A stretch of 64,000 bases of DNA. It comes from Actinomycetota bacterium (GTDB lineage: Bacteria > Actinomycetota > UBA4738 > HRBIN12). The notes below the pieces were generated by a model that was not told the origin of the DNA, did no database searches, and saw only the letters and a list, made by a program, of their open reading frames with translations. Shown piece after piece: positions 1 to 57,129 of the stretch (position 1 is the first letter of the stretch; every line of letters begins with the position of its first letter). The DNA is taken from contig DASSCU010000049.1 in NCBI GenBank assembly GCA_035697485.1, forward strand, positions 81,200 to 145,199, written 5' to 3'. A program made the translations under genes and the position numbers.

Positions 1-696
1 CGGGTGCTCGTGAAGGTCGGTGATTCGATCACGACCGACCACATCTCGCCCGCGGGTTCGATCAAGCTCGACTCGCCCGCCGGCGCCTACCTGCGGGACC
101 GGGGCGTGGAGCCCGTCGACTTCAACTCCTACGGCTCCCGGCGCGGGAACCACGAGGTGATGATGCGCGGCACGTTCGCGAACATCCGCCTCCGCAACGA
201 GATCGCCCCGGGCACCGAGGGCTCCTTCACGACTCATCTGCCCAGCGGCGAGGTGACGAGCGTGTACGAGGCCGCGGAGCGGTACCGATCAGACGCCACG
301 CCGCTCGCCGTGCTGGCCGGCAAGGAGTACGGCAGCGGATCGAGCCGCGACTGGGCGGCCAAAGGCCCGAACCTGCTCGGCGTGCGGTTCGTGATCGCGG
401 AGAGCTTCGAGCGCATCCATCGATCGAACCTGGTGGGCATGGGGGTCCTCCCGTTGCAGCATGCGACCGGCGAGAGCGCCGCCTCGCTCGGCCTCACAGG
501 ACGCGAGACCTTCTCGGTCCGCGGCCTCGCCGGCGGCATCACGCCCGGCCAGACGGCGACGGTCCACGCGGCGGCCGACGACGGCGCCTCCACGACGTTC
601 GACGTGACGGTCAGGATCGACGCCGAGGCCGAGCTCGAGTACTTCCGGGCCGGCGGCATCCTGCGGCTCGTGCTCGCCCAGATGCTCGGACGCTGA
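1..696 (+). CDS. acnA: aconitate hydratase, C-terminal part (5' end outside window)
   Basis: The frame is open from base 1. It contains [32 protein letters not shown] and [14 protein letters not shown] blocks typical of the aconitase swivel domain. Stop TGA at 694-696. Confidence 0.9.
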
Positions 697-749: not shown

Positions 750-755
750 TAGCAT
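750..755 (+). promoter_or_regulatory. candidate -10 hexamer TAGCAT, 6 nt upstream of the heliorhodopsin ATG (leaderless transcript predicted)
   Basis: TANNNT hexamer at 750-755 and ATG at 762, with no Shine-Dalgarno sequence between them. The same geometry recurs at many genes in the window. Confidence 0.45.
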
Positions 756-761
756 CGAGTC

Positions 762-1541
762 ATGTCCGCTGCCGTCAACGTCGTCGCCACCGGTGTCACC
801 GACTCACGCCTGCGGAACCTGCGCCGGTGGAACCTCGGCCTCACGGTGCTCCACATCGCCCAGGCCGTGGCGGTACTGCTGCTCGCAGACGACTTTGCGA
901 TCGCGGTGACGTCGTCGTTCCCCGAGGGCCCGCCGGGCGCGCCGATCCCGGCTCCCGAGACGCTGTTCGAGGTGACGATCGGCTGGGCCGTCGCCTCGTT
1001 CCTCGGTCTCGCGGCGCTGGACCATCTGCTCACCGCGACCGTCGGTAGAGGCACGTACGAGCGCGACCTGCGCCGCGGCATCAACAGGTTCCGCTGGGTG
1101 GAGTACGCGGTCAGCGCGACGCTGATGATCGTGCTGATCAACTTCTACTCGGGGACCACCTCGATCAACGCCGTCATCGCGATCGCCGGAGCGAACGTGG
1201 CGATGATCCTGTTCGGCTGGATCGAGGAGGCGATGAATCCTCCGAGCCGCTCGTCGACGACGATGCTGCCATTCTGGTTCGGCACCATCGCCGGCCTTGC
1301 GCCGTGGGCCGTCGTCGCCGTGAACATCGTCGGCTCGGCGACCGTGCCAGGGTTCGTCTATGGCATCGTCATCGCGCAGTTCGTCTTCTTCTTCAGCTTC
1401 GGGCTGAACCAATGGCTCCAGTACCGAGGAGTCGGTCGCTGGACGGACTACGCGTTCGGCGAGAAGGCCTACCTCGTGCTCAGCCTGGGGGCGAAGTCCG
1501 CGCTCGCCTGGCAGATCTTCGCGGGCTCGCTCGCGGGCTGA
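762..1541 (+). CDS. heliorhodopsin (7-TM retinal protein, inverted topology family)
   Basis: 259 aa. It shows block-by-block identity to my recollection of heliorhodopsin 48C12: LHIAQAVAVLLLADDFA, GPPG, FLGLAALDH, RFRWVEYAVSATLMIVLI, NVAMILFGWIEE, LPFWFGTIAGLAPW, VPGFVYGIVIAQFVFFFSFGLNQWLQY and GEKAYLVLSLGAKSALAWQIFAGSL. The Schiff-base Lys is K245 (aag 1494-1496) and the counterion Glu is E114 in WVEY. Confidence 0.9.
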   Translation: MSAAVNVVATGVTDSRLRNLRRWNLGLTVLHIAQAVAVLLLADDFAIAVTSSFPEGPPGAPIPAPETLFEVTIGWAVASFLGLAALDHLLTATVGRGTYERDLRRGINRFRWVEYAVSATLMIVLINFYSGTTSINAVIAIAGANVAMILFGWIEEAMNPPSRSSTTMLPFWFGTIAGLAPWAVVAVNIVGSATVPGFVYGIVIAQFVFFFSFGLNQWLQYRGVGRWTDYAFGEKAYLVLSLGAKSALAWQIFAGSLAG

Positions 1542-1554
1542 GCCCGAACGTGGA

Positions 1555-1582
1555 GGAAGGCGGGGCGTGTGCCCCGCCTTCC
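1555..1582. terminator. bidirectional intrinsic terminator hairpin between convergent heliorhodopsin and DoxX genes
   Basis: Perfect 12-bp stem GGAAGGCGGGGC / GCCCCGCCTTCC with loop GTGT, placed 14 nt after the heliorhodopsin stop and 22 nt after the DoxX stop. Confidence 0.7.
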
Positions 1583-1603: not shown

Positions 1604-2230
1604 TCAGGCGAGGATCGGGTGCTTCTTCACCAGTTCGGTCTGCTGCCACACCTTCCCGAGCCCGAGGTAGATGCCCGCGTTCGCGAAGAACAGGGCTCCC
1701 AGCACCAGCGCCGAGACGACGTGGTCGTCGACGAACGGGTTGTGCTCGGGCCAGATCGCCGTGGCGGTGTAGAAGATCGCCATCCAGATGATGCCGCCGA
1801 TGCTGGCGAGCTTGACGCCGATCCCGAGGATCAGCGCGAGGCCGATCAGTAGCATCGAGGCCATGTAGACCCAGTCCACCCAGGCCGCCGAGGTCGGTCC
1901 GGCCTCGGTCATCTGGAACCCGGTGATCGTCTGATAGAAGTCCGTGAACGGACCCTTCATCGCGAACCCGAGTACGCCGGCCGTCGGCGATCCGCCGTTG
2001 ATCCAGGCGGCGTCACCGAAGAAGTCGATCGAGCTGGCGCCCGAGGCCTCGTCGACGACCCGCCCCGTCGAGAAGCCGAGGGCGAACGCCTTGTCGAGGA
2101 AGGCCCACAGGAAGGTCCAGCCCATCGCGAACCGCAGCAACCCCATCACCACGCCCAGGCCTTTGCGGGTCTCCGGCGTCGCCTCGGGGATCGTGATCGG
2201 CTCGACGGCCCTCCGAACCTGCGTGTCCAT
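1604..2230 (-). CDS. DoxX-family membrane protein
   Basis: Four predicted TM helices and an N-terminal LLRFAMGWTFLWAFLDKAFALGF block typical of actinobacterial DoxX proteins. AAGGAGG lies 8 nt upstream of the ATG at 2230; the track ORF starts 9 nt earlier at a GTG. Confidence 0.75.
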   Translation of the reverse strand: MDTQVRRAVEPITIPEATPETRKGLGVVMGLLRFAMGWTFLWAFLDKAFALGFSTGRVVDEASGASSIDFFGDAAWINGGSPTAGVLGFAMKGPFTDFYQTITGFQMTEAGPTSAAWVDWVYMASMLLIGLALILGIGVKLASIGGIIWMAIFYTATAIWPEHNPFVDDHVVSALVLGALFFANAGIYLGLGKVWQQTELVKKHPILA

Positions 2231-2310
2231 GTACCCCACCTCCTTCGTTTCTTCGGTGATGTTCCCCCGGAGGGAGGCACGTCGAACCAGGCTCGTGGCC
2301 CCATGAGGGC

Positions 2311-2367: not shown

Positions 2368-3039
2368 CTACTCCTCCACGGTGCCGGGCGTGGTGGTGTG
2401 GCGGGCGAGGTAGGCGGCCGCCTCGGCTCGGCGGGCGACCTCGAGCTTGGACAGGATCGACGAGACGTAGTTCTTCACGGTCTTCTCGGCGAGGTTCAGC
2501 TCGTCGCCGATCTCCCGGTTCGTGCGCCCGTCGGCCACGAGGGTGAGGATGCGCTCTTCCTGGGGTGAGAGCCGCGCGAGCTTCTCGTCCTTCATCAGGT
2601 GCTTTCCCTTGCGCAGACGGTCGAGCACGGCGCTCGTGACGCTCGGGTCGAGCAGGGAATCGCCCGCGCCTACCGCGCGGATCGCGCGGAGCAGGTCGCC
2701 CGACTTCACTTGCTTCAGCACGTAGCCGGACGCTCCCGCCATGATCGAGGCGAACAGCGCCTCGTCGTCGGCGAACGATGTGAGCATCAGCACCCGGGTG
2801 TCGGGATGATCCGCGCGGATCTCTCGGGTGGCCTCGATACCGCTGCCGTCGGCCAGGCGCACGTCCATCACGACCACGTCGGGACGGGTGCGGTGCGCCT
2901 CGTCGATCGCCTCGCGCACCGTGCCCGCCTGGGCCGTGACGACGACGTCGTCCTCGGTGTCGAGCATGGCCTTGATGCCGTCGCGCACGATCTCGTGGTC
3001 GTCGACGAGCATCACCCGCAGCGGCGCCTTCTTCGTCAT
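2368..3039 (-). CDS. NarL/LuxR-family response regulator, DosR/DevR-like
   Basis: REC domain (VMLVDDHEIV, DVRLADGSGIE) plus LuxR HTH (LAEKTVKNYVSSILSKLEV). Long blocks match my recollection of M. tuberculosis DosR (LTSxxxDEAxxxxIxAGASGYVxK, VGAGxSLLD). A -10-like TAGGAT lies 7 nt upstream of the ATG at 3039; an alternative ATG is at 3048. Confidence 0.9.
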   Translation of the reverse strand: MTKKAPLRVMLVDDHEIVRDGIKAMLDTEDDVVVTAQAGTVREAIDEAHRTRPDVVVMDVRLADGSGIEATREIRADHPDTRVLMLTSFADDEALFASIMAGASGYVLKQVKSGDLLRAIRAVGAGDSLLDPSVTSAVLDRLRKGKHLMKDEKLARLSPQEERILTLVADGRTNREIGDELNLAEKTVKNYVSSILSKLEVARRAEAAAYLARHTTTPGTVEE

Positions 3040-3060
3040 GGCGCCCATCCTATCGGGGGC

Positions 3061-3537
3061 TCACACGGGCCGGTGCACGTCCTCCGGGTCGGCGAGCAGC
3101 GAATCCTTCACCCGATCGAGGAAGTCCTTGAGGGTCGCCTCCGCGACGCGGAACAGGACCGCACGGTCGATCGCGCGCCCGACGGCCCCGAGGGGCGGCA
3201 CGTATCGTGCGCTCATCGCCAGCTGCGACCGGTGGGGGCCCAGCGGCGCGATCTCGAGATCGGCGTCGAGCGACGGGAACAGTCCGGCCGCTCCGACCGC
3301 GGACCAACGGATCGGCACGACGGTCTTGCTCGGCATCTTCACCGGCTCCCCGAGTTCGATCGCCACGCGCCGAGCGACGCGGACGTCGTCGCCGAACCCC
3401 ACCTCGGCGAGCAGGGCGTCACCGTGGAAGTTGGCCTGCCCGGCCAGCCCGGGCAGCCAGGAATGCGGATCGCGCAGCAGCGCGTCCTCGACCCGCTCGG
3501 GGTCCATCGGAAGCTCCACGAAGTAACGAGCGAACAC
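3061..3537 (-). CDS. hypothetical protein, possibly SRPBCC/START-like fold
   Basis: 158-aa ORF with GC-rich third codon positions, 12 nt upstream of the regulator gene on the same strand. I recognise no diagnostic motif. Confidence 0.6.
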   Translation of the reverse strand: MFARYFVELPMDPERVEDALLRDPHSWLPGLAGQANFHGDALLAEVGFGDDVRVARRVAIELGEPVKMPSKTVVPIRWSAVGAAGLFPSLDADLEIAPLGPHRSQLAMSARYVPPLGAVGRAIDRAVLFRVAEATLKDFLDRVKDSLLADPEDVHRPV

Positions 3538-3573
3538 GCGACCCAGTGTCGCGGCAGGGGCGGGCCCGACGCA

Positions 3574-3587
3574 GGGACACAGGTCCC
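3574..3587. promoter_or_regulatory. DosR-like box GGGAC-ACAG-GTCCC (perfect arms) in the divergent promoter region
   Basis: Perfect 5-bp inverted arms with the 4-nt spacing of the mycobacterial DosR core. It lies 37 nt upstream of the 3537 start and 97 nt upstream of the oxidase ATG at 3684. Confidence 0.45.
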
Positions 3588-3683
3588 GCCCGGGTGGGGT
3601 CTCCTGGCACCCCCATCGGCCCGACGACGCCCGCAGACTCGGCCCTCATGTACGCACGAACGCCCCGGTCCGGAAGGAGATCG

Positions 3684-5051
3684 ATGATGCGAAGGTTCCG
3701 TGTGGGAGCCGCGGCACTGGCGACGGTGCTCGCGCTCGTGGCCGTCGCGTGCAGCGGCGACGGTGGGCAGGCCCCGGCCGCCGGCGACGGCGAGGCTGCG
3801 GCCGCCGCCGGTCCCGTCTCCGTCGACGTGATGTTGACCGACTTCGCGATCGATCCCGCCGCGATCGAGGTGCCGGCGGGCAGCGACATCACGTTCAACG
3901 TGATGAACCACGGGCAATCGCCGCATACGTTCGGCGTGGTGGTGGACGGCGAGACGATCGAGACACCGAGCATCGACGTCGACGGTTCGACCACGCTCGA
4001 GGTGCCTGCCCTGGCGGCGGGCACGTACGACACGTTGTGCACGGTGCCAGGTCACGACCAGCTCGGCATGGTCGGAACGCTCACGGCGACGGACGGGGCG
4101 GCCGACGGGACGACGACGGCGAGCGGCGAGGGGAGCAACGCGACCTCGCACGCCGGCATGACCGCCGAGGAGATGGCCGCGGGCCACGAGCAGGGCGTGA
4201 AGGACTTCCTCGCGGGCAAGGAGACCGACACGTACGGCAACCAGCCGATGGAGCCCGAGATGGACGGCGACGTGGAGGTCTACAACTTCACGGTCGAGGA
4301 GATCCAGTGGGAGATCGCCAAGGGCGAGTTCGTCGACGCCATGGCCTTCAACGGGCAGGTGCCCGGCCCCGAGCTCCGCGTCAACGAGGGCGACCGCGTG
4401 CGGTTCGTCGTCCAGAACCAGATGACCGAGCCGTTCGTGCTGCACTTCCACGGCCTGACGGTGCCAAACAGCGAGGACGGCGTGCCCTACGTGACTCAGC
4501 CGCCGATCATGCCCGGGGAGTACTGGACGTACGAGTTCACGATCAAGGATCCCCCCGGCATGTACGTCTACCACTCGCACTTCAACTCCGCGGAGCAGGT
4601 CGACAAGGGCCTCTACGGCTCATTGATCGTGGAGCCCAAGAACGGGAACTGGGCACCCGTGTACGGGGCCGACCCGGCCGTCGAGTACACGATGTTCGTG
4701 GGTGACGGGACGCTCGGGTACAACCTGAACGGGAAGTCGTTCCCGGCCACCCAACCGATCGTGGCGGCCAAGGGCGATTGGGTGCTGATCCACCTCGCGA
4801 ACGACGGCGCGTTGTTGCACCCGATGCACCTGCACGGCTTCCACTTCATGGTCGTGGGCGAGGACGGATACCCGCTGGCCGAGCGGAACCGGTACCTCGC
4901 GGACACGCTCGTGATCGCGCCCGGGTCGAGGTTCGACATCATGGTCAAGGCCGAATACCCCGGGGCGTGGGCCTTCCACTGCCACATCCTGCCGCACGCC
5001 GAGGGGCCGGAGGGCATGTTCGGGATGGTGACCGCGCTCGTCGTGCAGTGA
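3684..5051 (+). CDS. multicopper oxidase lipoprotein with N-terminal fused cupredoxin domain
   Basis: GGAAGGAGA lies 4 nt upstream of the ATG at 3684. Signal peptide with lipobox LVAVAC. Blue-copper ligand pattern H..CTVPGHDQLGM. MCO motifs HFHG, HSH, HPMHLH and HCHILPHAEGPEGM. The track ORF from 3207 is an Arg/Pro-rich artefactual extension. Confidence 0.85.
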   Translation: MMRRFRVGAAALATVLALVAVACSGDGGQAPAAGDGEAAAAAGPVSVDVMLTDFAIDPAAIEVPAGSDITFNVMNHGQSPHTFGVVVDGETIETPSIDVDGSTTLEVPALAAGTYDTLCTVPGHDQLGMVGTLTATDGAADGTTTASGEGSNATSHAGMTAEEMAAGHEQGVKDFLAGKETDTYGNQPMEPEMDGDVEVYNFTVEEIQWEIAKGEFVDAMAFNGQVPGPELRVNEGDRVRFVVQNQMTEPFVLHFHGLTVPNSEDGVPYVTQPPIMPGEYWTYEFTIKDPPGMYVYHSHFNSAEQVDKGLYGSLIVEPKNGNWAPVYGADPAVEYTMFVGDGTLGYNLNGKSFPATQPIVAAKGDWVLIHLANDGALLHPMHLHGFHFMVVGEDGYPLAERNRYLADTLVIAPGSRFDIMVKAEYPGAWAFHCHILPHAEGPEGMFGMVTALVVQ

Positions 5052-5111
5052 CGTTCGCGATCCGACCAGTCGCTGCGAGGCCGCGGCGTCCTGCCCCGGC
5101 CCTCGTCGTTC

Positions 5112-6278
5112 CTAGAGGGGGAGCCGCGCCCTGATCGTGGTGCCTTCGCCGGCGACGCTGAGGATCGTGAGCTCGCCGCCCAGCGAGGTCACCCGCTCAC
5201 GCAGGTTGCGCATGCCCATGCCCGACGAGGGGGCCGACGGGTCGAACCCCATGCCGTCGTCGTCGACCTCGAGCTCGGCGCCGCCGTCGGAGCGTCGCAG
5301 GCTGATGCGGCACGATGTGGCCTGGGCATGGCGGCCCACGTTCGAGAGGGCCTCGCGCACGAGCTGTACCACGTCGGCCGCGCGACTCGCGAGCTCGGCC
5401 GCAACGCCGTCGTCGACGTCGACGATCGTGAGCACGTCGGACCGCCCCTGGAACTCGAGCGCGAGCTGCTGGAGCGCCTGGTCGAGCTGACGGTCGGCGA
5501 GGATGCCGGGCCGCAGCCCGAAGATGTAGTTGCGCAGGTCGCGGATCGCGCGGTCGACCTCTTCCGTCGCGTTCTCGATGCGTCGGGCGATCTCGGGGTC
5601 GTTGGCCATCGCCGCGGTGCCCTGCAGCCCCATGCCCACCGCGAACAGCGCCTGGATCACGCCGTCGTGTAGCTCCTTCGCGATGCGCTCGCGTTCCTCG
5701 AGCAGCTCGAGCCGGGCGAGCTCCTCGTGAGCTCGCCGCATCTCCTCGTACAGCCGGGCGTTCTCGATCGCGACGCCGGCCTGCGTGGCCAGCACGACCA
5801 ACGCGGCCTCGTCGTCCTCGGTGAACTCCGAGGCCCCTTGCTTCTCGGTGAGGTAGATGTTGCCGAAGACCTGGCCGAGGGCCGTGACCGGCGCCCCGAG
5901 GAACGAATGCATCGGCGGGTGGTTCGGCGGGAAGCCGGCCGACCTCGGGTCGGCACCGATCTCGGGGATGCGCATCGGTCGCCGTTCCCGGATCAGCAGC
6001 CCGAGGATGCCGTGACCCACCGGCGGGTGCCCGATCGCGGCTCGCTCCTGCTCGGTCACGCCCTGGGTGATGAATCGCTCGATGCGAGGAGTGTCCTCGC
6101 CGAGCACGCCGAGCGCTCCGTAACGGGCCCCCGTGATCGCCACGGCCAGCTCCACGATCCGCTGGAGCACGGCTTCGAGGTCGAGCTCCGCTGCGAGGGC
6201 GAGTCCCGCCTCGATCAACATGCCCGTGCGGGCGTCGTCGGAAGGCACGCTCGTCGACGGCTCGCGATGGCTCACCAC
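5112..6278 (-). CDS. GAF-domain sensor histidine kinase (HisKA_3 / NarL-partner type)
   Basis: N-terminal GAF (HPPMHSFLGAPV block), HisKA_3 H-box ERERIAKELHDGVIQ, and a HATPase C-terminus (DDGMGF, GMGMRNLRERV). A -10-like TAGGCT at 6282-6287 precedes the tandem GTG codons at 6278 and 6275. Confidence 0.9.
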   Translation of the reverse strand: MVSHREPSTSVPSDDARTGMLIEAGLALAAELDLEAVLQRIVELAVAITGARYGALGVLGEDTPRIERFITQGVTEQERAAIGHPPVGHGILGLLIRERRPMRIPEIGADPRSAGFPPNHPPMHSFLGAPVTALGQVFGNIYLTEKQGASEFTEDDEAALVVLATQAGVAIENARLYEEMRRAHEELARLELLEERERIAKELHDGVIQALFAVGMGLQGTAAMANDPEIARRIENATEEVDRAIRDLRNYIFGLRPGILADRQLDQALQQLALEFQGRSDVLTIVDVDDGVAAELASRAADVVQLVREALSNVGRHAQATSCRISLRRSDGGAELEVDDDGMGFDPSAPSSGMGMRNLRERVTSLGGELTILSVAGEGTTIRARLPL

Positions 6279-6414
6279 CCGAGCCTAGCAACGGGGTCGG
6301 TCCGTCCCGTCCGTTGGGGGGCACCGGACCCGGGTCTCGAGCGAGCACCCGTCCTACGGTGACCGTGGGGCTCGAGGGCCGAGCGGTCCGGTGCCCCGCG
6401 AGGAGGTGTCCGAG

Positions 6415-7095
6415 ATGACACGCACCGTGGCCGACGTGATGACCAGGACCGTCGTGGTGGTGCCGGGCTCAGCACCCTTCAAGCAGGTCGTCCGCGCGAT
6501 GAGGGAGTACCGGGTGAGCGCCCTGCCCGTGACCGACGCCGACGGCTTGATCGTGGGCGTGGTCTCCGAAGCCGACATGATCCTGCGTGAGGACCCATCC
6601 GTGCTCGAGCCGCACTTCTTCGAGGGGCACACTCGTCGTGACGAGCGGAAGAAGGCCGAGGCGTTGGTGGCCCGCGATCTGATGACCGCCCCGCCGGTGA
6701 CGATCGGCCCGCAGGCGTCGGTGGCCGAAGCCGCGCGGATGATGCACGAACGTGACGTGAAGAGACTACCGGTGATCGATCTCGAAGGAAGAATCGTCGG
6801 CATCGTCTCTCGCATGGACCTGCTGGCGGAGTTCCTGCGCGACGACGACGACATCAAGACCGAGGTCTGCCGGGTGCTCGCCGACGATCTCGCGATCGCC
6901 GCCGATCAGGTGCTGGTGCTCGTCGAGGACGGCGTCGTGCATCTCGAAGGACGCATCGAGCGCAGGTCGCTCGTCCCGACGATCTGGGGAGCCGTGCGCG
7001 CTGTACCCGGTGTCGTCGGCCTCGACGAACGGCTCACCTGGGAGCTCGACGACACCATCACGCCGGTGTCACCGGTTCCCTGGGTCGGCTTCTGA
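6415..7095 (+). CDS. CBS-pair plus BON domain protein
   Basis: Two CBS motifs (VADVMTRTVVVV.., ARDLMTAPPVTI..) followed by a BON-like C-terminus (VLVEDGVVHLEGRI). GAGGAGG lies 8 nt upstream of the ATG at 6415. Confidence 0.85.
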   Translation: MTRTVADVMTRTVVVVPGSAPFKQVVRAMREYRVSALPVTDADGLIVGVVSEADMILREDPSVLEPHFFEGHTRRDERKKAEALVARDLMTAPPVTIGPQASVAEAARMMHERDVKRLPVIDLEGRIVGIVSRMDLLAEFLRDDDDIKTEVCRVLADDLAIAADQVLVLVEDGVVHLEGRIERRSLVPTIWGAVRAVPGVVGLDERLTWELDDTITPVSPVPWVGF

Positions 7096-27775: not shown

Positions 27776-28531
27776 TCAGCAGTCGTCCGCGGCGTTCGCT
27801 TCCGGTGCGTTGGACGTGCACGCGAATGCCCGGGCGAAGCCGTCGGCGATCGTCGTGGCCTGCTCGGCCGTGATCGTGCCGGGGCAGGTCTGCAGCTGAT
27901 CCCAGGCGGCCAACGCCACCGACGTACCATCGGGAAGGCCTTCGTAGGGCGCTGCGACGGTCATCGACCGGTCGGTCGCGACCCCCTTCAGGGCGTCGGC
28001 CACCTCGGGTGAGAGCGCCTCGTTGCCCTCGGCGCGGAAGTACAGCATCACGCCCGAGTGCTCCAGGAAGTGCACCGCCGCGGGCTCGCTGCCGATCGGC
28101 TGGTCGTAGGTCTCGGGGGAGGACGGCAGCACCTGTCCGCCGTAGTGCTCGCCCGACGTCGCGGGCTTCTGCGCGTACGTGATCGGTGTCCCATCGGCGA
28201 CGTGCTGACCGGCCTGCGCGTCGCCCACGGGCTGCTGCACCTCGGTGCAGCCGGCGGCCTCGGCCGCGGCGACCGCGGCCGCGGGGATGTCACGCGGGCT
28301 GGCCGCGCGTGTCAACCAGTAGAACGCTCCGACGCCGACGACCCCCGCGACCGCGAACACGGCGGTTCGGCGGACGAAGGCGCTCCTCTCCGCTCGTTTG
28401 CGCTGCGCGGCCCGGGCCTGCCGGGCCTGCTCTTTGCGCTCGCGCCTGGCATCGTTTCCAGCGGCCGCCGGACGGGGCTTGGGCGGCGCGGTCGCCTGCG
28501 GTGATCGTCGCTTCTTGTTCTTGTTCGTCAT
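27776..28531 (-). CDS. DUF3105-like membrane-anchored protein (paralogue 2)
   Basis: Lys/Arg-rich N-terminus, one TM segment and an FLEHSGVMLYF block paralogous to the next gene. Its ATG directly follows the upstream TAG. Confidence 0.7.
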   Translation of the reverse strand: MTNKNKKRRSPQATAPPKPRPAAAGNDARRERKEQARQARAAQRKRAERSAFVRRTAVFAVAGVVGVGAFYWLTRAASPRDIPAAAVAAAEAAGCTEVQQPVGDAQAGQHVADGTPITYAQKPATSGEHYGGQVLPSSPETYDQPIGSEPAAVHFLEHSGVMLYFRAEGNEALSPEVADALKGVATDRSMTVAAPYEGLPDGTSVALAAWDQLQTCPGTITAEQATTIADGFARAFACTSNAPEANAADDC

Positions 28532-29329
28532 CTACATCGCCGCCCCGCGCTCGGGGGCCTCACCGGCGTACTCGCGATCTTGGGTGGTGGGGTAGGAGTA
28601 CTGGCTCGTGAAGTCGAACGCCACCGGCAGGCTCGGCGCGGCGCACGAGCGGAGGCGTCGCCATCCCACGAGCGCCATCTGCACGCCCTCGGGCAGCTGC
28701 CCGCCGGCCCCTTCGTAGTCGTACGGCGCCACGATCACGCGGTCCTGGCCGACTGGGTCGTTCTGATCGTAGAAGTCGACGATCGGCTGCAGGGCATTCG
28801 CCGGCGCGTCAGGGTCGTACCAGACCACGGTGCCCCCGTGTTCGAGCGAGTGCAGCAGCGGTCCCAGGTCGGGCGGCGCCGAGTACACGCCTGCCGGCAG
28901 CGTCGAGGCTCCCACGTGCGGCCCCGAGGCCGGCGGCGTGCTCGGGTACGTGTCGAGCGGCGGAAGCTCGGGGAACCGCTCATCGCCCTCGATGTGCGCC
29001 TGATCGGCGTAGTCGGGGGAGGTCTGGTCGAACCCGTCGTAGAAGTCGGTCGTCGTGACCTCGTCGCATGCGGCCGTCTGGGCTTCGCCGCCGGCCTGGT
29101 CGAGCAGGTCGGCGGGCGCGGGCAGCGCGGCGTCGGAGCCGCTGGAAGGCTGAAGCACGACGACGGCCACGATCGCCCCCACCGCCGCCAGGACGACGAG
29201 TGACAGCCCGATCGTCCGGTTGCGCTTCCTCGCGGCCATCTGCCGCTGGATCGCCTCACGCTCGAGTCGGGCCTGCTCCTTCCGCTCGGCCTTCGTCGGC
29301 CTGCGGGCGTCGTTCGGTCGGTTGGGCAC
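28532..29329 (-). CDS. DUF3105-like membrane-anchored protein (paralogue 1)
   Basis: Same architecture as paralogue 2: basic N-terminus, TM segment, PPASGPH, and SLEHGGTVVWYDP. Confidence 0.7.
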   Translation of the reverse strand: MPNRPNDARRPTKAERKEQARLEREAIQRQMAARKRNRTIGLSLVVLAAVGAIVAVVVLQPSSGSDAALPAPADLLDQAGGEAQTAACDEVTTTDFYDGFDQTSPDYADQAHIEGDERFPELPPLDTYPSTPPASGPHVGASTLPAGVYSAPPDLGPLLHSLEHGGTVVWYDPDAPANALQPIVDFYDQNDPVGQDRVIVAPYDYEGAGGQLPEGVQMALVGWRRLRSCAAPSLPVAFDFTSQYSYPTTQDREYAGEAPERGAAM

Positions 29330-29426: not shown

Positions 29427-30731
29427 TCACCGCCAGTCGGTGACCTCGCCGGGATCGATCGTGTGCCGGGCGCGAGGGTCGGGATGGGTGGGCGTCGGCC
29501 CGCCGGCGACGGCGCCGAGGGGCAGCCATCCCCGGTCCACGCCGAGCGCGTTGCGGGCGAGCTCGGGGCAGGAGAGCGGGGAGCCGACCCAACCGCCCGC
29601 CAGACCCTGGGCCGAAAGGGCGAGCAACAGGCTCTGGATCACCGCGCCCCCCGACAGGAGGGGCGTCATCAGGTCGGCGTCGGGCCCCCCGGCGTTCGGA
29701 GACGCGTCCGTCCCGTCGAGCCGCAGCCATGGCACGATCAGCACCGGGGCGGCGGCAAGGATCTCGTCGTCCCGCACGAGTGCGTGCGCCGCCGCCAGCT
29801 CGTCGGGGCCGCCGGCCGGCGCTGATCGGCACGCCGCCATCGCCGCGCGGAAGCCGCGTCTGGCTGCCCCCGAGATCAGGACGGTGAAGCGCAACGGTCC
29901 CGGGTCGTGGGAGAGCCGGGCCGCGCACGCGGCGGCGATCGCCTCCTCCACCGATGTGCGCGGCACGTCGCCGGGGCCGAACGCGTCGCTCGTACGACGG
30001 TCGTGCAGCGCCTGCATCGGCGAGGCACGGAACAGGTCCTCCTCGGCGGGACGCACGAGGTCGAGCGCCGACCCGTCCTTCCCACCGAGGCGGTCGACCC
30101 CTCGCACGATCGCGACGGGGATCCGCGAATCCTTCGCGATCACGAGACCGCTCGCCGCGGCCACTTCGTCCGCGAGCGCGATCTCGGTCGCCTCGAGCGT
30201 GCGCCCTCGGTCGTCCGCGCGTCCGCGTAGGTCCACGATCGCCGGCAGCCCGTCGCATCCGATCGCCACGTTCACCACGCCCGTGCGCCACGCGCGGCCG
30301 AACGTGTCGGTCACGACGACGGCGACGTCGCCCAGTTCGAGCCGGGCCGACAGCTGTGACCGCAATCGGCGCGCGCTCGCGTCGGGGTCCTCGGGCAGCA
30401 GCGCGAGCGAGCCGGCGTCCACGTTCGAGGCATCGACGCCGGCGTTCGCGCAGACGAAGCCGTGCGCGGTCTCGGCGATCACCAGGTCGCCGCGTCGGGC
30501 GACGACGCGGCTCGTCTCGGTGATCACCGCGTCGGCTCGACCGACACCGCGCACGATGCGGCCCTCGGCCTTCGAGACGACCTTCGAGGTGACGACGACG
30601 ACGTCGCCCGCTCGTGCGCCCGCCGCCCTGAGCGGCGCGTCGAGCACCGCCGCGAGGTCGTCTCCCGGTCGCACCTCGGGCACGCCCTGGACCGGAACCA
30701 CGAGCACCGGCGGCCGTGACGTGGACGTCAC
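29427..30731 (-). CDS. fbiB: bifunctional F420 biosynthesis protein FbiB (gamma-glutamyl ligase CofE domain plus nitroreductase-like domain)
   Basis: CofE blocks (VVVTSKVVSKAEGR, CANAGVDASN, VVVTDTFGRAWR) followed by a nitroreductase-like C-terminal half. GTGA overlap with fbiA. Confidence 0.85.
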   Translation of the reverse strand: MTSTSRPPVLVVPVQGVPEVRPGDDLAAVLDAPLRAAGARAGDVVVVTSKVVSKAEGRIVRGVGRADAVITETSRVVARRGDLVIAETAHGFVCANAGVDASNVDAGSLALLPEDPDASARRLRSQLSARLELGDVAVVVTDTFGRAWRTGVVNVAIGCDGLPAIVDLRGRADDRGRTLEATEIALADEVAAASGLVIAKDSRIPVAIVRGVDRLGGKDGSALDLVRPAEEDLFRASPMQALHDRRTSDAFGPGDVPRTSVEEAIAAACAARLSHDPGPLRFTVLISGAARRGFRAAMAACRSAPAGGPDELAAAHALVRDDEILAAAPVLIVPWLRLDGTDASPNAGGPDADLMTPLLSGGAVIQSLLLALSAQGLAGGWVGSPLSCPELARNALGVDRGWLPLGAVAGGPTPTHPDPRARHTIDPGEVTDWR

Positions 30732-31675
30732 CGCGCGACGTCCAGCACCACCGAGGCGAGGCGCTCGGCGGCCTCGTCGTCGCGCATCACGGTGTCGGTG
30801 ACGACGACCCGTATCCCGGTGGCTTCGATCCGAGCCGCCAGCGCGCGATCGCGCTCGTCGATGACCCACGCGCCGAGCAGGCCTTCGTACGCCGTCGCGG
30901 CACCGGCGGCGGTGACCTCCAGGCCCACGGCCGGCATCAGCTTGTCGGCCATGCCCGCGAGTGGCGCCCCGCCGACGATCCCGCTCACGCCGACGACTGC
31001 CGGGCGGCGAGCCCCGACAGCATCACGCACGCCCCGCACCGCGAGGATCGGCCCGAGCGAGACGACCGGGTTCGACGGCGGAAGAACCACCACGTCGGCC
31101 TGCTCGATCGCCGCGAGCACCCCCGGGGCGGGACGTGCAGCCTCGACGCCCACGAACCGCACGGACTTGACCGCGTCAGCGGCACGGCGCTGCACCCAGT
31201 ATTCCTGGAAGTGCAGGTCGAGTCGCTCGCCGGTCCGGGCGTCGACGGCGTCGATCCGGGTCTCGACGCGATCGTCGGTGACGGGCAACAGCCGGGCGCC
31301 GACGCCGAAGCGCTCCGCCACGCGCGCGACGACTTGTGACATCGTCGCGCCTTGTCGCAGCATCGAGCTTCGCAGCACGTGGGCCGCGAGGTCGAGATCG
31401 CCGAGGTTGAACCACGCGTCCGGGGCGCCGAACGCCCGCAACTCATCGGTCGCTCGGAAGGATTCGTCGCGTCGACCCCATCCGCGCTCGCGATCGAACG
31501 CGTCGCCGAGCCAGTACGTCACGGAGTCGGGGTCGGGGCTCACGTGCAGCCCGTGTACGACGATGTCGTCAGCCACGTTGAGGATGACGGTCAGGTCGTC
31601 GCCGGGCACGACGCGTGCCATGCCGCGCAGGAACCTCCCCGCGCCGATGCCTCCGGCGAGCGCCGCAACCTTCAT
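30728..31675 (-). CDS. fbiA: 2-phospho-L-lactate transferase (CofD/FbiA)
   Basis: MKVAALAGGIGAGRFLRG N-terminus and LPPSNPVVSLGPIL, typical of CofD. Confidence 0.85.
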   Translation of the reverse strand: MKVAALAGGIGAGRFLRGMARVVPGDDLTVILNVADDIVVHGLHVSPDPDSVTYWLGDAFDRERGWGRRDESFRATDELRAFGAPDAWFNLGDLDLAAHVLRSSMLRQGATMSQVVARVAERFGVGARLLPVTDDRVETRIDAVDARTGERLDLHFQEYWVQRRAADAVKSVRFVGVEAARPAPGVLAAIEQADVVVLPPSNPVVSLGPILAVRGVRDAVGARRPAVVGVSGIVGGAPLAGMADKLMPAVGLEVTAAGAATAYEGLLGAWVIDERDRALAARIEATGIRVVVTDTVMRDDEAAERLASVVLDVAR

Positions 31676-31690
31676 CGAGGGACAGCGTAG

Positions 31691-31696
31691 TAGGCT
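31691..31696 (+). promoter_or_regulatory. candidate -10 hexamer TAGGCT, 7 nt upstream of the fbiC ATG
   Basis: It is the only TANNNT in the 28-nt fbiA-fbiC gap, and there is no Shine-Dalgarno sequence. Confidence 0.4.
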
Positions 31697-31703
31697 CGCC
31701 GAC

Positions 31704-34199
31704 ATGCCCCAGGCACCCGCCCCGCCCAGCGGCCAGCAGCTGCGCCGGGCCCTGGTGCGAGCGGAGCGGGGCGTGGCGCTGAGCCTCGACGAGACCGTCG
31801 CGTTGCTCGGCGCGAGGGGTCCGGAGCTCGACCGGCTGCTCGCGGTCGCCGCGCGGCTGCGCGACCTGGGGCACGGCGATGTCGTCACCTACTCCCGCAA
31901 GGTGTTCATCCCACTCACGATGCTGTGCCGGGACCGCTGCCACTACTGCGTGTTCGCGAAGGCGCCCGCGAAGCTGGAAGCGCCGTTCCTCACGCCGGAG
32001 GAGGTCGTATCGATCGCACGGACCGGCGCCGAGGCCGGTTGTAAGGAGGCGCTCTTCACGCTCGGCGACCGGCCCGAGGACCGCTACGAGGTCGCCCGCG
32101 ACTGGCTCGACGAGCGCGGCTTCGACTCGACGCTCGACTACCTGCGCGCGGTGGCGATCCGCGTGATCGAGGAGACGGGCCTGCTGCCGCACCTCAACCC
32201 TGGCGTCATGAGCTACGAGGAGATCGCGCGGCTGAAGCACGTGAGCGCCTCGATGGGCATGATGCTCGAGACCGCGAGCCCCCGTCTGTCCGCGAAGGGC
32301 GGCCCGCATCACCGATCGCCGGACAAGGTGCCGGCCGTGCGGCTGCGCACGATCGAGGATGCCGGCCGGCTCGCCGTGCCGTTCACGACAGGCATCCTCG
32401 TCGGCATCGGCGAGACCGATCGGGAGCGCGCCGAGGCGCTGTTCGAGATCCGCGACCTGCACCGGCGCTACCGGCACGTGCAGGAGGTGATCGTGCAGAA
32501 CTTCCGTGCGAAGCCCGGCACGGCGATGCGATCCTCGGCCGAGCCCGGCGACGAGGAGTTCCTCGCCGCCGTCGCCACCGCCCGTGTCGTGCTCGGGCCA
32601 CGCATGCACGTGCAGGCTCCGCCGAACCTCTCCGACCCTGCTCAGCGTCTCCGTCTGCTCGATGCCGGCATCGACGATTGGGGCGGCGTCTCGCCGATCA
32701 CCCCTGACCACGTGAACCCCGAGAAGCCCTGGCCGTCGATCGATGGGCTGCGCGAGACGACGGCCGCCCGTGGCAAGACGCTCCTCGAACGCCTGACCGT
32801 GTACCCGGAGTTCGCCGCGAAGCCGGACCCGTTCCTGGCTGGGAAGATGCGCGCCCCGGTGACGAGGCTGCTCGGCGGCGACGGACGCGCGAACGAGGGG
32901 CAGCGCCCCGCGCCGATCCGGTGGCAGGACCCCGACGTGCGATGGAAGCCGCGCACGATCGCGCTCACGTTCTCGAAGGTGGCCGGCGCAGGCCTGCGCG
33001 AGGATGCCGACGCCGTGTACGGGGAAGCGGATCTGCCGGCCACGACGGCGCAATGGAGACGCCACCGGGTCGCGCCCACACGGCTCGAGGGCGAGATCCG
33101 GTCCGCGCTGACGAAGGCGTCAGCCCATCGTGCGCTCTCCGATGAGGAAGCGCTCGCCTTGTTCCGCGCCGAGGGGGGCGCGCTCGACGCGCTGTGCCGG
33201 GTCGCCGACGACCTTCGTGCCGAGGCGGTGGGTGACGACGTCACGTACGTGATCAACCGGAACATCAACTTCACGAACGTGTGCTACGTGGGGTGCCGCT
33301 TCTGCGCGTTCGCACAGCGCGAGGTCGACGAGGAGTCGTACACGCTCACCCTGACGGAGGTCGCAGACCGCGCCGAGGAAGCCTGGGACCGCGGCGCCAC
33401 CGAGGTCTGCATGCAGGGAGGCATCCATCCCGACCTCCCCGGCTCCTTCTATCTCGACGTGGTCGACGCCGTGAAACGCCGGACCCCGTCGATGCACGTG
33501 CACGCGTTCAGCCCGATGGAGATCCTCAACGGGGCGACGAAGCTCGACGTGTCGTTCGCCGAGTTCCTCTCGGAAGCGAGGGCTCACGGCCTCGACACGA
33601 TCCCGGGCACGGCGGCCGAGATCCTCGACGATGAGGTGCGTTGGGTGCTGACGAAGGGCAAGCTCCCGGCTGCGACATGGGAGCAGATCGTCCGCACCGC
33701 ACACGGTCTCGGCATCCGCAGCTCGAGCACGATCATGTTCGGTCACGTCGATGCGCCGCCGCACTGGGTGGCGCACATCCGGCGCATCGGTCGCATCCAG
33801 GCCGACACGGGGGGATTCACGGAGTTCGTACCGCTGCCGTTCGTGCACCAACATGCCCCGATCTACCTGTCCGGCAAGGCGCGCCCGGGGGCGACGTTCG
33901 AGGAGAACCTGCGGATGCACGCGGTTGCCCGCATCCTGCTCGACGGACTGATCCCGAACATCCAAGTCTCGTGGGTGAAACTCGGTGTCGACGCGTGCCG
34001 CTCGATCCTGCGTGCGGGCGCCAACGACTTCGGCGGCACGCTGATGGAGGAGACGATCAGTCGCATGGCGGGCGCGGAGTGGGGGATCGAGATGACGCCC
34101 GAACAGTTCGACGACGCGATCCGCGCGATCGGGCGCACGCCGGCGGTCCGTACGACGACGTACGACGCCATCCGCCGGAAAGCACGTCAGGCATCCTGA
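31704..34199 (+). CDS. fbiC: FO synthase, fused CofG-CofH (FbiC)
   Basis: 831 aa with two radical-SAM cysteine motifs (CRDRCHYCVF and CYVGCRFCAF). Confidence 0.9.
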   Translation: MPQAPAPPSGQQLRRALVRAERGVALSLDETVALLGARGPELDRLLAVAARLRDLGHGDVVTYSRKVFIPLTMLCRDRCHYCVFAKAPAKLEAPFLTPEEVVSIARTGAEAGCKEALFTLGDRPEDRYEVARDWLDERGFDSTLDYLRAVAIRVIEETGLLPHLNPGVMSYEEIARLKHVSASMGMMLETASPRLSAKGGPHHRSPDKVPAVRLRTIEDAGRLAVPFTTGILVGIGETDRERAEALFEIRDLHRRYRHVQEVIVQNFRAKPGTAMRSSAEPGDEEFLAAVATARVVLGPRMHVQAPPNLSDPAQRLRLLDAGIDDWGGVSPITPDHVNPEKPWPSIDGLRETTAARGKTLLERLTVYPEFAAKPDPFLAGKMRAPVTRLLGGDGRANEGQRPAPIRWQDPDVRWKPRTIALTFSKVAGAGLREDADAVYGEADLPATTAQWRRHRVAPTRLEGEIRSALTKASAHRALSDEEALALFRAEGGALDALCRVADDLRAEAVGDDVTYVINRNINFTNVCYVGCRFCAFAQREVDEESYTLTLTEVADRAEEAWDRGATEVCMQGGIHPDLPGSFYLDVVDAVKRRTPSMHVHAFSPMEILNGATKLDVSFAEFLSEARAHGLDTIPGTAAEILDDEVRWVLTKGKLPAATWEQIVRTAHGLGIRSSSTIMFGHVDAPPHWVAHIRRIGRIQADTGGFTEFVPLPFVHQHAPIYLSGKARPGATFEENLRMHAVARILLDGLIPNIQVSWVKLGVDACRSILRAGANDFGGTLMEETISRMAGAEWGIEMTPEQFDDAIRAIGRTPAVRTTTYDAIRRKARQAS

Positions 34200-34385: not shown

Positions 34386-34613
34386 GTGCATCACTACATC
34401 CCTTGGCAAGAGCGAGCGCGGTGTCGCGAATACGACCCGGAGATCTTCTTCCCCGAGAAGGGAGGCTCATCGAGGGAGGCCAAGCGGATCTGCAGCGAGT
34501 GTCCCGTGCGCATCGAGTGCCTGAACTACGCCCTCCGTCGTGACGAGCGTTACGGCGTGTGGGGAGGCATGAGCGAACGGGAACGCCGACGCCTGAAGCG
34601 CATGGCGTCCTGA
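34386..34613 (+). CDS. whiB: WhiB-family Fe-S transcription factor (WhiB2/WhiB position by synteny)
   Basis: 75 aa with four Cys (C-x22-C-x2-C-x5-C), a GVWGG turn and a basic C-terminus. GTG start. Confidence 0.9.
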   Translation: MHHYIPWQERARCREYDPEIFFPEKGGSSREAKRICSECPVRIECLNYALRRDERYGVWGGMSERERRRLKRMAS

Positions 34614-35024: not shown

Positions 35025-38000
35025 ATGACCCAGTCCCCAGCCGCCACGCCCGAGCGCACGCCCACCGTCCTCGTCGTCCTGGTGGCCCGTGACGCAGCCG
35101 CCTGGCTCCGCGAGACCATCGCGGCGCTCGCCGCTCAGTCGTACCCACGCATGGCCGTGCTCGGCGTCGACGACGGATCCGACGACGACACGCGGCAGAT
35201 CCTGGAGCAGGCCCTCGGTGAGCGCCGGGTGATCGCGCTGCCCGATCCAGGCGGCCTCGCGCCCGCGTTCCGCGAGGCCATGGAGCAGCCCGCCGCGTCC
35301 GAGGCCGACCTCATCCTGCTGCTCCACGACGACGCCGCGCTCGACCCCGACGCCGTGCAGCGACTCGTCGAGGCCGCTGTGGGCATCCGTGGTCTCGACG
35401 AGGTGGGCATCGTCGGATGCAAGGTCGTCGACTGGGACGAGCCCCGCCGTCTGCTCGACGTCGGTCGCTCCGCCGACATCTTCGGCCACGCGTACACGCC
35501 GCTGCAGCCCGACGAGATCGACCAGGGCCAGTTCGACCGGGTCCTCGAGGTCCTGTGCGTGTCGTCGTCGGCGATGCTCATCGCGAGAGCGGCGTGGAAG
35601 CGCGCCGGCCTGCTCGACGAACGACTCGACACCGAGCACCAGGGACTCGATCTGTGCTGGCGGGTGCGTCTGGCGGGGTTCCGTGTGGTGATGATGCCGT
35701 TGGCGCGGGTCCGCCATCGCGAGGTCACGCGCTCCCGCGAACACGCGCGGCGCTCGCGACGTCACAGCATGCGATACGAAGAGGACCGAGCCGCGATCGC
35801 CACGATGGCGAAGAACTACGGCCTGATCTCACTGTTCTGGGTCACGCCGTTGGCGCTGCTGCTCGGGCTCGTCCGACTGCTCTTCCTGACGCTGGCGCGA
35901 CGGTTCGAGGAGGCCTACGACGTGCTCTCCGCGTGGGGCTGGAACGCCGCGCATGTCGGGGGCACGCTCTCCCGCCGCCGGCGCATCCAGCGCGAGCGCC
36001 GGGTCAAGGACCGCACGGTCCGTCGCTTCATGGAGACCGCGGGGGTCCGACTGCCCCGGTGGTTCCAGACGGCGGAACGCATCCTCGTGGAACAGCGCGA
36101 GATCGACGAGCGCGACGAGGACGAGACGACGTCCCGTCGGCTCCGCGACCGCACCGCGTCGCTCGTCGGATCGCACCCCGTGATCGTCGGCTCGTTCCTG
36201 GGGATCGTGGTCGGCGCCGTCACGATCCGCTTCCTCTTCGGAGCAGACGCGTTGGCGGGCGGGGTGTTACCGGCCTTCCCGGCGGGTCCCGACGGGTTCT
36301 GGGCCGAGCTGGTCTCCGCCTACCGGACGACACCGTTGGGGGGCACGCTCGCCGCAAGTCCTGCCTTGGGGGCGCTCGGGGGTTTGTCGTGGCTGATGCT
36401 CGGCAGCGCTTCGCTCGCGCAGAAGGTGGTGCTCGCCGGAGCCCCGGTGTTGGCGGCGATCCTGACCTACCGCGCGGCGATTCGGCTCACGGGGCGACCC
36501 GGCCCGTCCGTGCTGGCCTCCGGGGTGTACGTGCTCTGCGGTCTCACGCTGTGGTCCTTCTCCCAGGGGCGCCTCGATCTCCTCGTGGCGCTCGCGGTCC
36601 TGCCGGCGATCTTCGAGCGGATCGAAACCGCGTTCGGGCCCGACGAGCCGCAGGGCGGGCGACGGCGATTCGCCGCGGGTGTGGGGGTCACCCTCGCCGT
36701 GCTGGTGGCGTTCCTGCCGGGCGCGTTGCTCGCCGTCGGCGTGCTCGTCGTGGTCCAACTGGTCGCCGGCTCGTCCCGCGCCCGCGGCCTCGCCTCGATG
36801 GCGCTCGCATCCGCGATCGCCGCCGTGCTGCTCTTCCCGTTCGTGCCGACGCTCGCGGCGGGCGGAGGAGCTGCGCTGGTATCACAGATCGGCACCTCGG
36901 ACCTGTCGCAGCTGGCGCGGCTAGCGCCGGGTGACGGGCCCGGCACGTGGGTCGTGGCCCTCTTCCTGCCGGTGGCCGCACTCTTGTCGTTCGCCTTGGT
37001 GGGCGCCGAGCTCCGTGGACGGGCGGTCCGCGCGGTGCTGGTGGTCCTGGTCGCCCTGGCGTTGTCGTGGCTCTCCGCCGCGTGGTGGGTTCCGGCGCCG
37101 TTGTCCAACCCGCTCGCGTATCTCGCCGTCGCCGCCGTCGGGGAAGTGATGCTGGTCGCGTACGGTGTCTCCTCGGCCGTGACCGGCCTCGGCCGCGAGG
37201 CGTTCGGCATGCGCCAGATCCTGACCGCGATGCTCGCGGTCGTGATCGGCGGCGGTCTCCTGCTCCAGTCGATCGCGGCGCTCGTGGGCGGATGGGCGGT
37301 CGGCGGTCCCGAGCAGGTGCCGGCGGCGTGGTCCGTGCTCGAGAGCACCGCGAAGGGCGACTTCAGGGTGCTGTGGGTGGGCTCCCACACGAACGATCCC
37401 TTCCCCGCGCCCGGCGGCGACCCCTCGGGACTGGCCGAGTCGGGTCGGGCCACCCTGCGTTACGGGCTCACCGGTCGCGACGGCACGGTTGCGATCGACC
37501 TCGCGCGTCCCTCGGTCGGCCCGGGCCCCGATCACCTCAGGGAAGCGCTCGACGAGATCCTCGCAGGGACGACCCGCCACGGGGGGGCGCTGTTGGCCCC
37601 CTTCGGCGTGCGGTTCGTGATCGCCGCCGACGACGACGTGCCCCCGCAAGCGCAGGCGCTGCTCGACGCCCAGGTCGACCTCGACCTCGTGCCGGCTGCC
37701 GGTCTCGTCGTCTACCGCAACGCGCGGGCGATCTCGCCCGCGGCGGTGCTCGAGGACGACCCCCTCTCGGTCGAGGCGATGCGATCATCCGATCCACCTG
37801 ATGTCGTGCGCGCGTCTCTGCGTCGAGGGTCCCCCCTCGCGCAGGTGATGGGGGGCTGGGAAGGAGGCGAGGGCTCGGGGCCGGTCTACGTCTCGACGGA
37901 GTTCCAGGGTGCCTGGCAGCTGGAGGGCTCCGAGGACGAGCCCCTCACGGCGTTCGGTTGGGCGACCGGGTTCGAGACGCAGCAAGCACCGGTGGCCGTG

Positions 38001-38099
38001 CGGTACGGGTCCCAGTTGCCCGCCACGATCCAAGTGTGGCTCCTCGGGCTCGTGTGGGCCGTCGCCCTCTGGGTCACGAGGAAGCCAGTGGCGCGATGA
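35025..38099 (+). CDS. GT2 glycosyltransferase domain fused to a large polytopic membrane domain
   Basis: 1024 aa. The N-terminal ~250 aa are GT2 (VLVVLVARDAAAWL, GVDDGSDD, LLLHDD). The remainder contains more than 12 hydrophobic helices plus a C-terminal extracytoplasmic region. Confidence 0.8.
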   Translation: MTQSPAATPERTPTVLVVLVARDAAAWLRETIAALAAQSYPRMAVLGVDDGSDDDTRQILEQALGERRVIALPDPGGLAPAFREAMEQPAASEADLILLLHDDAALDPDAVQRLVEAAVGIRGLDEVGIVGCKVVDWDEPRRLLDVGRSADIFGHAYTPLQPDEIDQGQFDRVLEVLCVSSSAMLIARAAWKRAGLLDERLDTEHQGLDLCWRVRLAGFRVVMMPLARVRHREVTRSREHARRSRRHSMRYEEDRAAIATMAKNYGLISLFWVTPLALLLGLVRLLFLTLARRFEEAYDVLSAWGWNAAHVGGTLSRRRRIQRERRVKDRTVRRFMETAGVRLPRWFQTAERILVEQREIDERDEDETTSRRLRDRTASLVGSHPVIVGSFLGIVVGAVTIRFLFGADALAGGVLPAFPAGPDGFWAELVSAYRTTPLGGTLAASPALGALGGLSWLMLGSASLAQKVVLAGAPVLAAILTYRAAIRLTGRPGPSVLASGVYVLCGLTLWSFSQGRLDLLVALAVLPAIFERIETAFGPDEPQGGRRRFAAGVGVTLAVLVAFLPGALLAVGVLVVVQLVAGSSRARGLASMALASAIAAVLLFPFVPTLAAGGGAALVSQIGTSDLSQLARLAPGDGPGTWVVALFLPVAALLSFALVGAELRGRAVRAVLVVLVALALSWLSAAWWVPAPLSNPLAYLAVAAVGEVMLVAYGVSSAVTGLGREAFGMRQILTAMLAVVIGGGLLLQSIAALVGGWAVGGPEQVPAAWSVLESTAKGDFRVLWVGSHTNDPFPAPGGDPSGLAESGRATLRYGLTGRDGTVAIDLARPSVGPGPDHLREALDEILAGTTRHGGALLAPFGVRFVIAADDDVPPQAQALLDAQVDLDLVPAAGLVVYRNARAISPAAVLEDDPLSVEAMRSSDPPDVVRASLRRGSPLAQVMGGWEGGEGSGPVYVSTEFQGAWQLEGSEDEPLTAFGWATGFETQQAPVAVRYGSQLPATIQVWLLGLVWAVALWVTRKPVAR

Positions 38100-46926: not shown

Positions 46927-47016
46927 CGCCCGAAGCGTCCCACCGGCGCGGGCTTCACCCCACCGGGGTTGTCCGACCGGCCTGGTCCTGTCGCACCTCG
47001 GCCGTATCGTCGGCCG

Positions 47017-47790: not shown

Positions 47791-47978
47791 GGCGACCCTT
47801 GGTCGCTGAGCATGGCGCGGTTTAGATGTAAGTCCTGCCTCGCCCTCGGGCGAGAGAGGGTGGGAGTCTCCGGTCCTCGCGACCGGGCGGCGATCGCCCC
47901 GGCAGGCGAGTGTGGGGGAAAAGACCAGGTCAGCCGGTGGAGGGCCCGCCGAACCCGAACAGGAGACGACCGACGCGT

Positions 47979-57095: not shown

Positions 57096-57129
57096 CGTAA
57101 CGCAGGGGCGCTGCTACGATGCGCGGCGC

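Follow-up and report, generated by a model that had tools for sequence, protein, structure and literature searches.

The locus described here raises the question of whether the gene at the beginning of a 64-kb stretch of DNA (the whole of which is hereafter called the window) encodes, as a sequence-only reading had proposed, a heliorhodopsin (HeR), and, on the assumption that it does, whether its residues, transcription signals and neighbours allow anything to be said about the way in which the protein works. The ATG of the reading frame (Table 1) is the earliest possible start downstream of an in-frame stop, and a protein begun at the next in-frame start (a GTG at codon 29) would lose part of the conserved domain, which sets in at residue 20. 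The frame has a GC3 of 0.91, like the other real genes of the window (70% GC), and the long antisense or off-frame ORFs that overlap it failed the codon-position GC filter of the gene calling. Furthermore, comparison with four orthologues gave dN/dS values of 0.12-0.28, and the gene is under purifying selection.

Table 1. Coordinates of the heliorhodopsin gene, its key codons, candidate signals and neighbours in the window
Feature	Position	Strand	Remarks
Aconitase gene, 3' part	4..696	+	Aconitase_C E = 1.4e-43; 65 nt upstream of the HeR gene; context only
TAGCAT, -10-like TANNNT hexamer, candidate leaderless promoter	750..755	+	6 nt (CGAGTC) 5' of the ATG
Heliorhodopsin (HeR) CDS	762..1541	+	259 aa plus stop; PF18761, NF038020, 48C12 match, model
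His31 codon (CAC)	852..854	+	aligns with 48C12 His23, TM1; His in 61/97 family representatives
His88 codon (CAT)	1023..1025	+	aligns with 48C12 His80, TM2; His in 88/97 representatives
Glu114 codon (GAG), predicted Schiff-base counterion	1101..1103	+	48C12 Glu107, TM3; Glu in 86/97 representatives
Lys245 codon, predicted retinal-binding lysine	1494..1496	+	48C12 Lys241; inside last predicted helix 230-257
Perfect 12-bp GC-rich hairpin, loop GTGT	1555..1582		arms 1555-1566 and 1571-1582; starts 14 nt past the HeR stop
Convergent 211-aa membrane protein	1604..2239	-	no Pfam match at 1e-3; sub-threshold MauE and DoxX similarity
LuxR-type response regulator	2368-3048	-	98% identical in relatives
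Clade-conserved module	2368-7095		kinase, response regulator, CBS-BON protein, multicopper oxidase, 158-aa protein without family
GAF-HisKA_3 histidine kinase	5112-6278	-	soluble

Family identity and predicted fold

As judged by its sequence, the product is a genuine, canonical prokaryotic heliorhodopsin. The Pfam family PF18761 (Heliorhodopsin) matched it over the full profile (1-242 of 242; 325.3 bits, cut-off 26.7, E = 2.6e-97), as did the NCBIfam equivalog NF038020 'heliorhodopsin HeR' (267.4 bits, cut-off 100), whereas the type-1 rhodopsin profile of Pfam (Bac_rhodopsin) gave no match to the protein at E<=1. The domain spans residues 20-257 of 259; as there is neither a second domain nor an additional N-terminal one, the domain-fused types (MORN-HeR, Znf-HeR) are ruled out. 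Among solved structures the best sequence match was 48C12 (E about 1e-67), a heliorhodopsin from a freshwater actinobacterial fosmid (PDB 6SU3, 6SU4, 6UH3, 9LJJ), followed by the Thermoplasmatales HeR (E about 5e-48). The protein and 48C12 have 49% identity over 241 aligned positions, the same length and the same 7-TM fold, and the blocks from which the family had been recognized in the sequence-only reading (RFRWVEY, MIVLI, MILFGW, LPFWFG..PW, VPGFVYGI and AY.VLSL.AKSALAWQIF.G) are all present in the HMMER alignment of the two. The residues singled out in that reading (K245, E114, H31 and H88) had been numbered correctly, and belong to a larger set of kept pairs (48C12/this HeR: K241/K245, E107/E114, H23/H31, H80/H88, S237/S241, N101/N108, E149/E156, E230/E234, Q213/Q217 and W246/W250). 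The alignment places a single glutamate counterion in TM3 and a histidine pair in TM1 and TM2. The proposal that the gene encodes a heliorhodopsin is borne out by these profiles and residues, and by the predicted fold.

The AlphaFold2 model, for which 56 homologues were used (pLDDT 82.9, pTM 0.81), has seven long helices (14-41, 73-92, 109-129, 135-158, 169-191, 197-221 and 230-257). Its first outer loop forms a beta-hairpin (strands 46-51 and 66-72), and its first inner loop contains a short helix. In Foldseek searches the model was matched to 6su3 and 6is6 with a TM score of 0.87 (rmsd about 2.1 A, E about 1e-17), and type-1 rhodopsin structures reached TM <= 0.66 at best (E about 1e-3). Counted over the predicted segments, lysines and arginines amount to 14 on one side of the membrane (N-terminus 4, ICL1 6, ICL2 1, ICL3 3), and the outer loops and the C-terminus have none, which by the positive-inside rule argues for an N-terminus-in topology. 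In silico, the product is predicted to cross the membrane seven times, with its N-terminus in the cytoplasm and Lys245 in TM7, in agreement with the topology first proposed for it and with the fold of the solved heliorhodopsins.

The likeness to 48C12 is accompanied by a number of replacements (S76 to Ala84, F79 to Asp87, V83 to Thr91, L202 to Gln206, N207 to Phe211, A210 to Gly214 and C166 to Thr175); moreover, the dimer-interface residues of 48C12 (Y179, D127, Y151 and D158) are not conserved, and ICL3 carries three basic residues as against five. The hosts differ as well, ours (70% GC) being probably a soil or sediment actinomycete and that of 48C12 freshwater planktonic. The idea that Ala84, Gln206, Phe211 and Gly214 mark an unusual HeR subtype was rejected, since all are recurrent variants among 97 full-length family representatives (Ala84 in 39, Phe211 in 8, Gln206 in 8; Gly214, and likewise Asp87, Thr91 and Thr175, also recur). 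Two of these positions are occupied by minority variants, which are seen across this HeR clade: Gln206 (codon 1377-1379) corresponds to E191 of V2HeR3 and L202 of 48C12, and Phe211 (codon 1392-1394) to the 'fenestration' Asn (N207 of 48C12). Both may influence colour tuning or carotenoid access.

Relatives, host and gene neighbourhood

The gene adds one member to a large, automatically annotated family. A word-indexed search retrieved at least 5,020 proteins at E<=1e-10. When representatives at 50% identity were searched exhaustively, 2,943 clusters passed E<=1e-3 and 1,292 passed E<=1e-10. The best 120 of the at least 5,020 relatives all carry PF18761 and are 73-95% identical to the query. 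Among the matches listed, one relative (91% identical) already bears the name 'heliorhodopsin HeR [Actinomycetota bacterium]', and another (80% identical) comes from the cultured Amorphoplanes nipponensis. Beyond the correct annotation, the importance of the find is small: one more soil or sediment actinomycete joins the HeR family.

The nearest genomic loci (L001-L004) come from four MAGs whose labels read uncultured Actinomycetes or Actinomycetota. They run collinear with the window for 9 kb or more, and their nucleotide identity to it is about 86%, a combination that points to other species of the same genus-level clade. The HeRs of this set (L001-L004 and P0001-P0007, from uncultured Actinomycetes MAGs) are 91-95% identical to ours at the protein level, and the hexamer and hairpin of Table 1 are shared. 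The gene order is that of the window (aconitase, HeR, 211-aa membrane protein, response regulator, 158-aa protein, multicopper oxidase, histidine kinase), except that L004, unlike the window, has no multicopper oxidase gene. Apart from aconitase, the window also contains genes for WhiB, F420 biosynthesis, SecA, RF2, FtsEX and SmpB, which, together with the collinear Actinomycetes MAGs, back the earlier assignment to a high-GC actinobacterial chromosome. A monoderm host is indicated by the Actinomycetes/Actinomycetota origin of the nearest loci and by the WhiB, DUF3499, F420 and LCP protein genes of the window. In a MAG of the Acidimicrobiales we observed a second HeR copy (L016:367-1105) broken into three pieces in different frames, an intact copy being present on a different contig (L012); the broken copy is possibly a pseudogene or an assembly frameshift.

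To look for a conserved partner, we compared the surroundings of the gene across 17 loci from genomes, 4 long contigs and 80 loci from metagenomes. The aconitase gene (of which an orthologue in L018 has the full 902 aa) is followed beyond HeR by a module (Table 1) whose genes look like a redox module of the DosS/DosR type. When ten window neighbours were searched for with tblastn, they co-occurred with HeR only in the collinear genus-level clade, and their arrangement is absent from the 13 other genome loci, the 4 long contigs and the 80 metagenome loci. On the four long contigs, in which HeR is 78-82% identical to ours, it stands beside an MFS transporter, a NUDIX protein, an alpha/beta hydrolase, or a MerR-B12 regulator with DUF2238. 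When neighbouring ORFs from about 102 loci were clustered de novo, no family exceeded 7 loci; the most frequent ones, judged by eye only, were an ANTAR-type regulator, a GTP cyclohydrolase I-like and a NAD-epimerase/SDR-like family. Ten classes of recurrent HeR neighbours have been reported (GS, NAD synthetase, photolyase, MerR, TerC, ABC transporter, SDR, alpha/beta hydrolase, DUF2177 and DUF2238; PMC11109279), and none of them adjoins this HeR on the same strand. The HeRs whose partners have been demonstrated, AbHeR (glutamine synthetase), TfHeR (photolyase) and OcHeR (ABC transporter OmrDE), are members of the family whose cytoplasmic loops, like those of this protein, are positively charged, but their partner genes do not lie beside this HeR. 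Because the neighbourhood is kept only within the clade, no partner recurs in the loci compared and no known class is adjacent, the locus yields no reliable pointer to an HeR partner. It illustrates two published points: the contexts of HeR genes vary without a universal partner, and genes for retinal synthesis are usually not found nearby.

Transcription signals

The sequence-only reading had described the gene as an independent unit, with a TANNNT hexamer 6 nt ahead of the ATG and a perfect 12-bp hairpin after the stop. Both elements were found as described. The hexamer stands at the same spacing in L001-L003 and takes the form TACCAT in L004, the most distant locus; on the + strand of the window TANNNT occurs with a frequency of 0.00075 per position. 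Between the hexamer and the ATG no SD-like sequence was seen. Going by actinobacterial leaderless genes generally, this geometry suits a leaderless transcript, and HeR is probably transcribed as a leaderless mRNA from its own promoter. Some 35 nt upstream of the hexamer lies a block, TATGCATGCG (707-716, +), that contains overlapping palindromes and is nearly invariant in the orthologous loci; it is not enriched within the window.

The hairpin sits between the convergent genes for HeR and the 211-aa membrane protein, and the segment that contains it (1536-1600) folds with -41.7 kcal/mol (z = -5.65 versus shuffled sequence). Across five orthologous loci its arms are invariant, and the loop differs in sequence and length. 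It has no U-tract, and is a probable bidirectional terminator, common to both convergent genes. Scans of positions 500-2500 for consensus sigma-70 promoters and U-tract terminators found nothing; such patterns suit high-GC actinobacteria poorly (the alignment of orthologous intergenic regions was used instead), and the terminator scan was silent on the hairpin because the latter lacks a T run. In the 65-nt spacer between the aconitase gene and HeR no terminator-like structure was detected (z = 0.53), so that read-through or co-transcription from the aconitase gene into HeR may occur. The notion of an independent unit is upheld only in part: by the conservation of hexamer and hairpin in the orthologues, but not by the gap that follows aconitase.

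Possible mode of action and source of retinal

By homology with the characterised 48C12, TaHeR, AbHeR, TfHeR and OcHeR, the protein is most likely a slow light sensor or regulator and not a pump. To the whole of this reading (a canonical heliorhodopsin of such a kind, transcribed from its own leaderless promoter and ending at a shared hairpin) we would assign a probability of roughly 0.8. By analogy, K245 would bind all-trans retinal as a protonated Schiff base with E114 as its counterion, and light would isomerise the retinal; the Schiff-base proton would then pass to a polar cavity on the cytoplasmic side and back (with zero net ion transport), and a long-lived photo-intermediate would alter the Arg/Lys-rich cytoplasmic loops, which in turn may modulate a partner protein or pathway. 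Bacterial HeRs have been described in such a regulatory mode (PMC9529153, PMC9769723, PMC11109279), and this model comes from a few in vitro studies, the literature regarding the function of HeRs as unsettled.

Within the locus itself, two groups of neighbours could be thought of as recipients of a light signal. The aconitase gene adjoins HeR and is read in the same direction, nothing terminator-like was seen between the two, and known bacterial HeR partners have all been found as same-strand neighbours; by parallel with AbHeR and glutamine synthetase, or TfHeR and photolyase, HeR might in this genus have been recruited to modulate, through its Arg/Lys-rich cytoplasmic loops, the Fe-S enzyme and RNA-binding regulator by light. 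If true, this would add a new HeR partner from central metabolism (the TCA cycle), with a bearing on iron or oxidative stress. We regard it as very unlikely. The adjacency is confined to L001-L004 within the synteny sample, and carries no independent weight there because the entire 9-kb region is collinear; moreover, aconitase is mentioned neither in the text nor in the supplements of two surveys of HeR neighbours, and the conserved -10-like hexamer suggests that HeR has a promoter of its own. Input of HeRs to two-component systems, for its part, has been proposed generally by Bulzu et al., and two-component genes are reported to be enriched near HeRs (PMC8612252). Here a kinase and a response regulator lie within 4.7 kb of HeR, on the opposite strand and separated from it by other genes; they resemble a soluble redox module (DosS/DosR type, with a CBS-BON protein), and their proximity to HeR is kept only in the collinear clade. 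Two-component systems are, besides, very frequent in actinobacterial genomes, which counts against a specific link, and the window holds a second LuxR-type regulator (48362-49048). That HeR passes a light signal to this pair is, in our estimate, very unlikely.

Two further readings concern the protein rather than its neighbours. Proton transport exists in some HeRs (PMC9448325), and with the proton-transporting viral V2HeR3 group our protein has the family and the counterion glutamate in common; it also places a polar residue (Gln206) in an otherwise hydrophobic outer half, at the very position of V2HeR3 E191. This residue is, however, not the carboxylate: the TM6 hallmarks E191 and W195 are replaced by Gln206 and Phe210, and we have rejected membership in the V2HeR3-type group on these two positions. 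Since the change E191Q abolishes the current of V2HeR3 (PMC9448325) and the partner Trp is replaced by Phe, and with 48C12 and TaHeR (the closest characterised relatives) showing no transport, a light-driven or light-gated proton transporter is extremely unlikely. The HeR might also work mainly by way of a second pigment or a lipid, either with a xanthophyll taken up from outside as an antenna bound at the lateral fenestration, or by a light-dependent reaction on membrane lipids. A 2025 preprint reports fenestration or carotenoid-site residues for 91% of HeRs, and F171, G178 and F210 are conserved in our protein, in which A210 of 48C12 is replaced by Gly214; HeRs have furthermore been linked to DegV and DUF2177 (Chazan et al.). 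Yet the Asn highlighted in the preprint (48C12 N207) is Phe211 here and C166 of 48C12 is Thr175, neither DegV nor DUF2177 genes occur in the 64-kb window, and both the antenna and the lipid idea are still hypotheses, for which reasons we consider this mode very improbable as the main one. The slow sensor or regulator is the reading that we retain.

As to the source of the chromophore, about 65 candidate ORFs covering the window were scanned against Pfam, and no phytoene synthase, phytoene desaturase, lycopene cyclase, Blh or second rhodopsin was found in the 64 kb, as had been noticed before for the crt and blh genes. This absence says little, because it follows a pattern already described for the family and covers 64 kb of one genome: blh is rare beside HeRs, and co-occurs with them genome-wide mostly when another rhodopsin is present (Chazan et al.).

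Several other features of the window were recorded along the way. A DUF5719 protein (37958-39517, +; 36 kb from HeR) showed a weak, sub-threshold match (21.6 bits, cut-off 25, E = 2e-4) to PF07100, the family of the Anabaena sensory rhodopsin transducer, which probably reflects a common beta-sandwich fold. The coenzyme F420 biosynthesis cluster (29427-34199; 28 kb from HeR) comprises an FbiB-like gene (F420 ligase plus nitroreductase, -), a CofD/FbiA gene (-) and a divergent FbiC-like radical-SAM CofG/H fusion, and is followed by the WhiB gene (34386-34613). At 47717-47942 (+) there is a raiA RNA motif (Rfam RF03072; 143.9 bits, gathering score 101.3), which overlaps a ComF-like gene (46969-47790) at the 3' end of that gene and extends into the start of a gene for a ribosome hibernation factor (47910-48365). 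The release factor 2 gene (57103-58240, +) carries the classic programmed +1 frameshift site at 57193 (GGAG..CTT TGA C), its first frame having 22 codons (MSEHTERLQKLRERVLAAKEFL, then a stop) ahead of the PCRF/RF-1 frame. Lastly, two DUF3105 paralogues stand in tandem at 27776-29329 (-).
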